Below, one piece after another: positions 3,376-54,113 of a DNA stretch of 64,000 bases. Each line of letters begins with the position of its first letter. Within the stretch, counting starts at the first letter, position 1. Location: NCBI RefSeq assembly GCF_003334785.1, contig NZ_QOWV01000011.1; one strand, given 5' to 3'. This DNA is from Escherichia coli (GTDB lineage: Bacteria > Pseudomonadota > Gammaproteobacteria > Enterobacterales > Enterobacteriaceae). The position numbers and the translations under genes were made by a program. The notes under the pieces were generated by a model. That model saw nothing but the letters and a program-made list of their open reading frames with translations, was not told where the DNA came from and did not search any database.

Positions 3376-4102
3376 CGGGCGCTCCTTGCCAGAATGCCTG
3401 GATTAACGCAGTGAGGCAGCCACAGACAATGCCTGCCAGAATGGCGACGGGAATAGAAAATAGCGTTACGCCTGCAAGGGCACCAACTAACGCTGCGGTA
3501 ACGCAAAGAGATTGTTTGCGCTGGAAAGAGGCGAGCAGGAAACTCATAAAGAGTGCCGGAAGCATAAAACCTAATGCAGCTTCAACGGCGGGATAACCTT
3601 GCAGCAAGCCGCTGCCGGAGAATGCCCCTATTACCGTACCAAATACCCACGATGACCATGAACTGAAGGCAATGCCGATCATCCAGTTCTCGCTCCAGCG
3701 GCGATTATTGCGTACCAGTTTTGCGGTTGCGGCGGCAAAAACCTCATCCGTCAGGCCAAACGCCCACAGGGCGGTTTTCGATTTTTGCAGACGCTGAATA
3801 ATACGGCTACGCAGTGACGGGCCATACAACACATGGCGAACATCCATTGCCATGACGGTCAGTGCAGCAATCCACAAACTACTCCCGGCTGCCAGCATCG
3901 CGGTAATGACGAACTGGCTCGCGCCTGCATAAATGATGCAGGAGAAAAAAACGCTTTCGAGAGGAGAGAATCCCAGACGGGTCGCATTCAGACCGAACGC
4001 AAAGGCCACCGGAATATAACTAATAACAATCGGTAAACTGTCTTTGCATCCTTCCATGAAGGTCGCCGAACCAGGAGCAGGCTGTGGAGTAGGGCTTTCC
4101 AT
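3365..4102 (-). CDS. ygaZ: L-valine exporter large subunit YgaZ (AzlC-like)
   Basis: 245-aa membrane ORF; synteny ygaZ-ygaH next to mprA. Confidence 0.88.
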
Positions 4103-4225
4103 AGAGTGTACGCTTAACGATTGTTAATATTATAAATAGACTGAATGAATATCTTAACCTTATCAGACTGATGGGCTTCTTAACACCCTTATAAGTGTAA
4201 AGCCACGAAAACGGTTGCTGATTGC

Positions 4226-52717: not shown

Positions 52718-53947
52718 TTATGCGGCAATAACTTTGTATTTTTGAGACGAAACATAGTCACTCCACCATTGCATGAGAACCACACGTTCTGTGAGATACT
52801 CTGCACGATTGTAGGCTGCAATTATTTCATCTTTTTTCGAGTGGGCAAGGGCGGCTTCTAAGACATCAGTTCTAAACTTGCCACACTCCTCAGCCGCCGT
52901 TCTAGCGATTGATCGCATACCATGAGCTACAAGCTCACCTCCGAAGCCCATACGGATTATAGCCGCATTAGCTGTTTGTTCATGCATGTGATTGAGTGGA
53001 GCTTTGATACTGGGAAAAACCCACTCTCTATGCCCGCTGATGGCTTTCATTGAATCCAAGACTCGCAAAGATTCTTTGCTCAGTGGAACTTTGTGAGGCT
53101 TCTTCATTTTCATAAACTCCGCCGGGATGTTCCACATGCTGGTTTCTATATCAATATCTGACCATCTTGTGCGAACAGCTTCACCAGGGCGAACCCATGT
53201 GAGAAGTTGCCACTCAATCAGTAGCCTTGTTTCTAAACGGATAGAAGCATTGTTTAGAGCAACCAGGAAGCGGGGGAGTTCGGAAGGGGGTAATGCTGGC
53301 ATATTCTGTTTTTTTGGCTTGCTGAACCGTTGCCCCAGGTTGTCAGCCGGATTGAATTCTATGAGTTCTTCTGTTGCTGCATAGCGGAAAATTTCATTCA
53401 GGCGGGATATGACGCGGCGAAGTGTTTCAAGGACACCTCGTTTTTCTATGGGGTCTAAATGCTGTTTAAGCATTTTAGGGCGAATCTCCTTAATGGGGGT
53501 ATCACCCAACGTTGGAAAGATATTTCTCTCTAGGCTTCGCCAGATGTCGTTAGCATGATCCTGGGAGATGCCTGACGTTTTGACTTTCTCATCAAGCCAC
53601 TTCTTGGCTACTGCTTGAAATGTATGTTCCGTTGCATCCTTAAGGGCATTGGCTTTGTGGGTGTTATGAACTTGTGGGTCTATACCATTTGCAAGCAACG
53701 ACAAGTACTCATCACGTAAAGCTCGTGCCTTCGCAAGTGTAAGGTGAGGATAGGTTCCTAAGCTCACCTTAGTTCGCTTTTTGGTCACAGGCACTGCATA
53801 TCTGAAATACCAATTTTTCTTTCCTCCCTTCGCTAAGGGGGCGATTCGCAGGAGCAAACCATCGCCGTCAAAAAGGTTAACCTCTTTCTCGGCAGGTTTG
53901 GTGCTTTTGATTTCAGTGTCAGTGAGCTTCTTAGCGATTTTTGCCAT
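52718..53947 (-). CDS. P4-type tyrosine integrase (phage integrase family)
   Basis: ORF track 52718..54091 runs into the ssrA terminator; start placed at MAKIAKKLTDTEIK (ATG 53945-53947, 409 aa). C-terminal catalytic HxxR (VAHGMRS) and Tyr (AAYNRAEY); adjacent to ssrA. Confidence 0.85.
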   Translation of the reverse strand: MAKIAKKLTDTEIKSTKPAEKEVNLFDGDGLLLRIAPLAKGGKKNWYFRYAVPVTKKRTKVSLGTYPHLTLAKARALRDEYLSLLANGIDPQVHNTHKANALKDATEHTFQAVAKKWLDEKVKTSGISQDHANDIWRSLERNIFPTLGDTPIKEIRPKMLKQHLDPIEKRGVLETLRRVISRLNEIFRYAATEELIEFNPADNLGQRFSKPKKQNMPALPPSELPRFLVALNNASIRLETRLLIEWQLLTWVRPGEAVRTRWSDIDIETSMWNIPAEFMKMKKPHKVPLSKESLRVLDSMKAISGHREWVFPSIKAPLNHMHEQTANAAIIRMGFGGELVAHGMRSIARTAAEECGKFRTDVLEAALAHSKKDEIIAAYNRAEYLTERVVLMQWWSDYVSSQKYKVIAA

Positions 53948-53990
53948 GTTTGGGACCCTCATGTTTTGGACCCTTTGTGTTGGGTCCCAA
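53945..53990. promoter_or_regulatory. Repeat array in integrase 5' region: CATGTTTGGGACCCT, CATGTTTTGGACCCT and inverted TGGGTCCCA
   Basis: ccatgtttgggaccctcatgttttggaccctttgtgttgggtcccaaaaag between ssrA and the integrase start. Confidence 0.55.
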
Positions 53991-54044
53991 AAAGGGTGCC
54001 ATAACGAGTAGATTCTAGCAATTCTCGGTAGACTACTATAGACG

Positions 54045-54079
54045 TAAAAAAGCCCGCAAGGCTGGTTCCATGCGGGCTT
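54045..54079 (-). terminator. ssrA rho-independent terminator
   Basis: Hairpin aagcccgca / tgcgggctt with 12-nt loop, followed on the minus strand by T-run (A-run 54045-54051 on plus). Confidence 0.75.
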
Positions 54080-54113
54080 GATAGACTTCACTGAACTTCA
54101 ATATATCAAAAAT

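Follow-up and report, generated by a model that had tools for sequence, protein, structure and literature searches.

What is the function of the short direct and inverted repeats that lie between the tmRNA gene, ssrA, and an adjacent integrase gene (int) in this Escherichia coli chromosome? An earlier note on this DNA had likened them to arm-type or regulator binding sites. The repeats are conserved and laid out as in phage P4, and between the two kinds of site that the note had named, sites for the integrase (Int) are favored over sites for an AlpA-family regulator, as the repeat motif tracks the N-domain of Int. We consider it very probable, from comparison of sequences, that the four TGG(G/C)ACCC copies (53951-54001) are the int-proximal (P') arm-type Int sites of a ~20-kb ssrA island. 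This reading is supported by the layout of the copies, their conservation, their P4-like geometry, the arm-binding domain of Int, and the co-variation of the motif with the Int N-domain.

The window (the whole 64,000-nt stretch of DNA that was analyzed) is part of the E. coli chromosome, and alignment to the attR of the K-12 element CP4-57 places the point at which identity to K-12 resumes at the attR core (Table 1). The K-12 counterpart of this core is the annotated pseudo-ssrA 'psaA', which is the CP4-57 attR. Since the sequence is K-12-identical from the attR core onward, the island measures ~20.4 kb (33.68-54.11 kb). Pattern searches of the window for an exact or near second copy of the ssrA 3' end gave nothing usable. 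The cargo of the island, assigned by homology with strain 300709, includes a serine recombinase, two ParB-like genes, a NACHT protein, and a relaxase. At the other end of the island, ssrA and int have the same orientation (both on the minus strand) and are 166 bp apart. The interval holds the whole attL arm, and a terminator follows ssrA. An Rfam scan of the window returned only the tmRNA, besides a far-sub-threshold fragment of IsrM over the ssrA end and the terminator.

Table 1. Features of the ssrA island and its flanks, in window coordinates; arm sites are numbered in the direction of int transcription.
Feature	Position	Strand	Remarks
attR core, pseudo-ssrA 3' end	33677-33691	-	CGCCAGC-CCACCAAT; short-word BLAST and direct reading
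Candidate P-arm pair	33748-33768	-	TATGGTTCC (33760-33768) and TAGGACCA (33748-33755), 12-bp period; 57-75 bp from attR core
AlpA-family protein, 68 aa, candidate recombination directionality factor	35094-35300	+	PF05930, 1.6e-19
int, P4-family tyrosine integrase, 409 aa	52718-53947	-	
int start codon (MAKIAKK...)	53945-53947	-	PGAP start in identical genomes
Arm site 4	53951-53959	+	TGGGACCCT, inverted relative to int sense; 153-161 bp from attL core
Second in-frame ATG	53960-53962	-	15 nt upstream of the start, AGGG before it; window's lineage only
Arm site 3	53966-53974	+	TTGGACCCT, inverted relative to int sense, core of the second 15-mer; 138-146 bp from attL core
Arm site 2	53981-53989	-	sense TGGGACCCA, 'inverted copy' of the earlier note; 123-131 bp from attL core
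Arm site 1	53993-54001	-	sense TGGCACCCT, first of direct pair (12-bp period); 111-119 bp from attL core
Candidate int promoter elements	54012-54021	-	read by eye; putative
Island-borne intrinsic terminator, 3' of ssrA	54050-54079	-	
attL core, ssrA 3' end	54112-54129	-	block CGCCAGCTCCACCAAT, common to attR
ssrA (tmRNA), integration target	54114-54476	-	Rfam tmRNA match
smpB	54691-55173	-	

The two 15-mers that had been singled out in the earlier note are present with the letters as quoted, CATGTTTGGGACCCT at 53945-53959 and CATGTTTTGGACCCT at 53960-53974, and match at 14 of 15 positions; they are contiguous (0 bp apart, period 15) and not separated by 1 bp as had been stated. The inverted copy reported to follow them is found at 53980-53989 (TTGGGTCCCA), and the first repeat does overlap the integrase start, the CAT at 53945-53947 being the reverse complement of the ATG that PGAP annotates in identical genomes. 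One more copy, which is degenerate (AGGGTGCCA, 53993-54001), had been overlooked and brings the total to four. Conservation is confined to a core of ~8-9 bp in each copy. The second 15-mer carries the extension 'CATGTTT' only in the window's lineage; its relatives read ATCG, ACCG, or CTTG at this place. The close resemblance of the two 15-mers stems from the upstream in-frame ATG.

On the sense strand of int, TGGCACCCT is followed at a 12-bp period by TGGGACCCA, at a 15-bp period by an inverted TTGGACCCT, and at a further 15-bp period by an inverted TGGGACCCT, with the complete string reading TTA-TGGCACCCT-TTT-TGGGACCCA-ACACAA-AGGGTCCAA-AACATG-AGGGTCCCA-AAC-ATG. The last of these sites overlaps the int Shine-Dalgarno sequence (GAGGG, 53956-53960, minus strand), and its end is separated from the ATG by 3 nt. 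The core, GGG(A/T)CCC, is nearly palindromic, and only analogy and the flanking bases give the sites an orientation. A window-wide motif search located no further good copies outside the cluster, as the copies in the attR arm (described below) are missed at the one-mismatch level.

Comparison with related ssrA islands had been put forward as a way to check the earlier reading. We aligned the int-proximal arm of E. coli classes whose integrase regions are 94, 81, and 79% identical to that of the window in DNA, together with islands from Pluralibacter, Superficieibacter, two Yersinia species, Dickeya, and metagenome-assembled genomes, in which the Ints are 86-92% identical. Across these ten islands, from at least five genera, the four cores vary little or not at all, while the spacers between them diverge: variable columns make up 5 of 31 in the cores and 15 of 23 in the spacers (Fisher p=4.6e-4). 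The spacers occur as TTTT, GAAT, or CCTT; as ACACAA, CGAAGA, or CTAAGA; and as AACATG, AAATCG, AAACCG, or AACTTG, whereas TTATGGCACCC of arm site 1 is unchanged in 10 of 10 islands. Within the species, 1,332 of 5,426 complete genomes, about a quarter, carry the int-proximal arm, and the four cores are kept in ~1,300 E. coli genomes.

The same layout extends well beyond this group of islands. In all 80 related loci, we read the 150 nt that precede int, and an automatic repeat finder was run on them as well; many of these relatives, down to 34-37% Int identity, show two direct copies followed by one or two inverted copies. The 12- and 15-bp periods are also often shared, and both are kept in four distant loci (L063, L071, L085, and L074). 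The letters of the motif, in turn, are particular to each clade: AGGCCCA (in the CP4-57 clade, including K-12), AGGCACC, AGGTACC, GTAGTAC, GTAACAC, GACACCACAG, GGGGGCA or GGGGGCC, GGGGTAA, and GTGGGTAAA.

For phage P4, the GenBank record (NC_001609) names such repeats outright. Its 'attP arm sequence repeat' features comprise two tandem 12-mers at 3942-3965, located 113-136 bp from the 20-bp core; an inverted repeat at 3915-3926, located 152-163 bp from the core and over the int start; and, in the other arm, two tandem 12-mers at 4151-4174, located 54-77 bp from the core. This inverted repeat, the counterpart of arm site 4 in the window, also contains a pair of in-frame ATGs at a spacing of 12 nt. 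The distances from site to core in the window (111-161 bp) agree with those of the P4 arm repeats to within a few bp.

The window Int contains an Arm-DNA-bind_3 domain (PF13356, residues 8-95, E=5.7e-23), followed by the Phage_int_M and Phage_integrase domains, and it is 49% identical to the IntA of CP4-57 in K-12 and 35% identical to the Int of phage P4. Two natural switches of motif can be followed against this domain. In the CP4-57 clade, all three copies change together from AGGCCCA to AGGCACC, and the DNA between them stays alignable. Compared with K-12 IntA, Ints of the AGGCACC class are 72-73% identical over residues 1-110, 90-93% over residues 111-200 (84% in locus L022), and 85-89% beyond; in Ints of the AGGCCCA class with more diverged catalytic parts (82-86%), residues 1-60 are still 92-95% identical. 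In the second switch, in E. coli E-1246, GGGACCC is replaced by TAGTANCC in three of four copies, which read TAGTACCC, TAGTAGCC, and TAGTATCC. The E-1246 Int is 58% identical to the window Int over residues 1-65 and 69% over residues 1-95, versus 84% for the rest, and clade members that retain GGGACCC have N-domain identities of 85-99%.

In both switches, the change of motif thus coincides with a change in the Int N-domain. As the sites and the sequence encoding the N-domain are adjacent, part of this co-variation could result from linkage or from the swap of a module, and some contribution from linkage is to be expected. Pure linkage is argued against by the observation that three separate copies changed in concert within otherwise conserved DNA.

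The distal end of the island carries a candidate counterpart to the int-proximal sites. The pair in the attR arm is weaker, with two mismatches in each copy to the consensus, and the block in which it lies is kept in the O55:H7 island, the sole comparator lineage; the attR arm is carried only by the class identical to the window and by the O55:H7 class, and the abundant 94% class is truncated by insertion sequences (IS). At 57-75 bp from the attR core, the candidate pair is spaced much like the P-arm pair of P4 (54-77 bp). A pair with a 12-bp period (TAGGACCAACAATGGGACCAA) is present in the CP4-57 attR arm of K-12 as well. Matches to the consensus for integration host factor (IHF) occur three times in the arms at 12 of 13 positions, but the window-wide count of such matches is at chance level.

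Could the repeats instead have come together by chance, or stem from a recent duplication in tandem, without any function? A random 64 kb contains about two clusters of at least four copies of an 8-mer (up to one mismatch, on either strand, within 60 bp), and the 15-nt identity, including the 'CATG', is specific to the window's lineage, both of which are in keeping with this explanation; for a contiguous repeat matching at 14 of 15 positions, we estimate that ~0.05 would be expected per window. Because the generic repeat-cluster statistic does not discriminate, the case for more than chance rests on comparison. There, the cores are kept across genera and the spacers are not, and the layout falls within a few bp of the annotated arm repeats of P4; chance or functionless duplication is extremely improbable in our judgment, and is effectively refuted by the comparative data. 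The repeats might also serve as operators for a protein of the island other than Int: the AlpA-family protein or another island-encoded regulator. An AlpA-family gene is present in the island, the AlpA of K-12 is annotated as an activator of intA, and the directionality factors of related elements bind attL beside int, as described for TorI (PMC2951348) and RdfS (PMC11963761). The motif nevertheless does not follow AlpA, given that an AlpA 78% identical goes with AGGCACC while AlpAs that are only 61 and 53% identical go with AGGCCCA, and in the sister clade represented by CP4-57 the motif class tracks the Int N-domain. The equivalent repeats of P4, moreover, are annotated as attP arm repeats. 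In ~530 E. coli genomes, IS-truncated islands without alpA and attR keep all four cores, although this may only reflect the little time available for decay. Taken together, operators for AlpA or for another regulator, in place of Int sites, seem very unlikely.

The remaining alternative is that the repeats act in RNA, with the int leader forming site 1-site 4 and site 2-site 3 pairings that would hide the Shine-Dalgarno sequence and the start codon and thereby control translation, possibly via the Vis/AlpA-like protein as an RNA-binding factor. The predicted fold of the leader has an energy of -27.3 kcal/mol (z=-3.7; 0 of 200 shuffles as good), a report cited in PMC2951348 has P4 Vis binding int mRNA, and all four sites would be transcribed if the -10-like element TGCTAGAAT were used. 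Among nine clade members, however, compensatory changes affect 0 of 18 predicted pairs and four substitutions break pairs; Rfam holds no matching family; and in P4 the -10, by our reading, lies between the direct copies, which would place them outside the transcript. A hairpin also leaves unexplained the tandem 12-bp direct copies, the copies in the attR arm, and the co-variation with a protein domain. Translational control by this fold is consequently an unlikely primary role for the repeats, though a hairpin may still add a translational layer. A combined use is likewise doubtful, namely DNA sites for the Int N-domain together with a leader fold that hides the ribosome-binding site, with the AlpA/Vis-like protein perhaps acting on the RNA and the lineage-specific duplicated unit of Shine-Dalgarno sequence and ATG giving two Int isoforms, as has been suggested for P4.

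Arm-type sites for Int are thus the reading that we prefer, and a mechanism may be proposed on this basis. The N-terminal arm-binding domain of Int would bind the four sites and the weaker pair in the attR arm, while the catalytic domain would engage the core at the ssrA 3' end, and the bridges so formed would fold attL and attR (or attP) into a recombination complex (intasome). In addition, the sites fill the space from the terminator to the start codon, and the last covers the ribosome-binding site, so occupancy by Int would be expected to lower int expression.

Where int transcription begins bears directly on this expectation. The terminator that follows ssrA confines any int promoter to the ~100 bp up to the ATG, a stretch that it would share with the sites. 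A scan for the sigma-70 consensus found no promoter. By eye, TTGCT (54017-54021) is a possible -35 that is invariant in the clade; it is situated ~11-12 nt before the first repeat, in the position occupied by TTGAAA or TTGACA in P4 and many relatives. The overlapping TGCTAGAAT (54012-54020) resembles an extended -10 and is found only in the window's lineage, and across the clade the two elements read by eye are not kept together. Whichever of them is used, the sites would overlap the promoter or would sit just downstream of the transcription start.

Repression of an integrase gene by its own product has precedents. P4 Int is described in PMC2951348 as repressing its own promoter through sites in attL, and IntS of KplE1 does so through attL sites as well (PMC2951348); IntI of PAI I536 also represses its own promoter (PMC7286903), and in ICEMlSymR7A, IntS bound at attP blocks intS transcription (PMC11963761). 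By analogy with these four systems, Int bound at the sites described here probably also represses int. Autoregulation is the least secure step of our explanation, since no sigma-70 consensus promoter was found. Furthermore, the annotation of K-12 AlpA as an activator of intA indicates that regulation need not be repression only, and positive control is possible.

Of the known systems, P4 is the closest in organization. The two elements have homologous Ints with the same three domains, and each has an AlpA/Vis-family directionality factor (the island protein is 37% identical to P4 Vis). They also share a tandem pair with a 12-bp period in P', an inverted copy over the int start, and two in-frame ATGs in the repeat at that start; the tandem pair in the P arm of P4 has a candidate, weaker counterpart in the window. 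The P4 motif is GGGGGCA, as opposed to TGGGACCC in the window, and its target is leuX rather than ssrA. P4 lacks the second inverted copy that is present in the window at a 15-bp period, and it has recognizable -35 and -10 elements embedded in its repeats, whereas the scan found no consensus promoter in the window. P4 is, furthermore, a satellite phage, and the element in the window is a mobilizable island (relaxase, ParB, NACHT).

CP4-57 of K-12, with its IntA and AlpA, resembles the island in its ssrA target, its attR sequence, the presence of TAGGCCCA twice at a 12-bp period with an inverted copy upstream of intA, and a pair with a 12-bp period in its attR arm, where the island has its candidate pair. 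It differs in its motif (AGGCCCA), in having one inverted copy as opposed to two, and in its other cargo genes. Phage lambda offers a parallel in logic: its Int is heterobivalent, and the N-domain binds arm sites (P'1-P'3) that are next to int in attL. The lambda sites belong to an unrelated sequence family, however, and they are all direct and clear of the int start, with int expressed from pI and pL.

Two further elements place an integrase gene beside attL. In KplE1 (CPS-53) of K-12, a tRNA-type gene and intS are co-oriented, as ssrA and int are here, so that the integrase promoter lies inside attL (PMC2951348). The arm-type sites of IntS and the directionality factor repress intS, an arrangement predicted for most tRNA-linked integrases (PMC2951348). 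KplE1 differs in its integrase lineage, in a site motif that contains TAAA, and in that its TorI sites have been mapped (PMC2951348), while the sites in the window are predicted from sequence. In ICEMlSymR7A, intS is immediately 3' of attL, and five arm-type motifs (P1-P5) are needed for integration (PMC11963761); the directionality factor, RdfS, stimulates intS transcription (PMC11963761). The motif of this rhizobial integrative and conjugative element is TGKTGGTATC, and the gene for its directionality factor is far from int, in contrast to the island described here (PMC11963761).

The annotation of phage P4 already describes this arm layout, so the finding, though well supported, is an ordinary one and reveals no new kind of system. 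For a widespread ssrA island, it defines where the functional ends lie and gives TGG(G/C)ACCC as the motif that Int is likely to recognize. For the family, the attP layout of P4 recurs in many of the 80 relatives, distant ones included, and motif and N-domain change together. The natural pairs of motif and N-domain (GGGACCC, TAGTANCC, AGGCCCA, AGGCACC, and others) are material with which arm-site specificity might be decoded or re-engineered, and they could help to predict cross-mobilization between co-resident islands.

The attR end of the island, at the pseudo-ssrA 3' end (33677-33691), is missing the T of ...CCAGCTCCACCA, so that excision would be expected, judging from the sequence, to leave ssrA one U shorter. 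In the Shewanella prophage CP4So, excision that leaves ssrA one U shorter has been published (PMC5148205).

Between the terminator that follows ssrA and site 1 (the arm site nearest the attL core), the block GTCTA..GAGAATTGCT is near-invariant across genera in the alignment of related islands, and could contain a promoter or a host-factor site. Both arms have IHF-consensus matches, three in all, in the interval from core to arm sites; the window-wide count of 12/13 matches is at chance level. Upstream of the annotated start of the integrase gene (int) by 15 nt, there is an extra in-frame ATG, which has its own AGGG and is restricted to the lineage of the window in comparison with related islands. 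Similarly, the inverted arm repeat of phage P4 also holds two in-frame ATGs, at a spacing of 12 nt.

Features of the window
Feature	Coordinates	Strand
IHF-consensus match, 12/13 positions	54002-54014	-
IHF-consensus match, 12/13 positions	54104-54116	+
IHF-consensus match, 12/13 positions	33710-33722	-
Near-invariant block	54022-54049	
Upstream int ATG	53960-53962	-
49-bp-period direct repeats	37691-37824	
TGGCAC tandem run	40457-40498	
Relaxase ORF	40100-41329	-
tRNA gene	27889-27964	

Elsewhere in the island, an intergenic-looking stretch has three direct repeats (period 49 bp, 75-81% identical), possibly iterons or else an oriT/regulatory array, and the hexamer TGGCAC occurs in a tandem run within the relaxase ORF, which could be a coding repeat prone to slippage. 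The window also includes a tRNA gene, called tRNA-Met (CAT anticodon) by ARAGORN; this is probably ileY-type, because the syntenic O55:H7 gene is annotated as tRNA-Ile.

In E. coli 300709, ssrA is occupied in tandem: positions 3470-20170 of L007, which separate it from the same island, hold a P2-like prophage as well as a defence gene encoding a dCTP deaminase. The int-proximal arm of the island there is 100% identical to that of the window. A variant truncated by IS1, IS2, and IS3, represented by E. coli WCHEC035125 and standing for ~530 genomes, has int and the four arm sites intact and also contains a type I R-M system. Because it has neither attR nor alpA (the candidate recombination directionality factor gene), this variant is presumably immobile. 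In the sister island of E. coli E-1246 (L092, 1480-1545), three of the four arm sites are altered to TAGTA(C/G/T)CC, and the N-domain of its integrase is only 58-69% identical to that of the window, as compared with 84% for the remainder of the protein. On the basis of these sequences, the sister island looks like a natural specificity switch.
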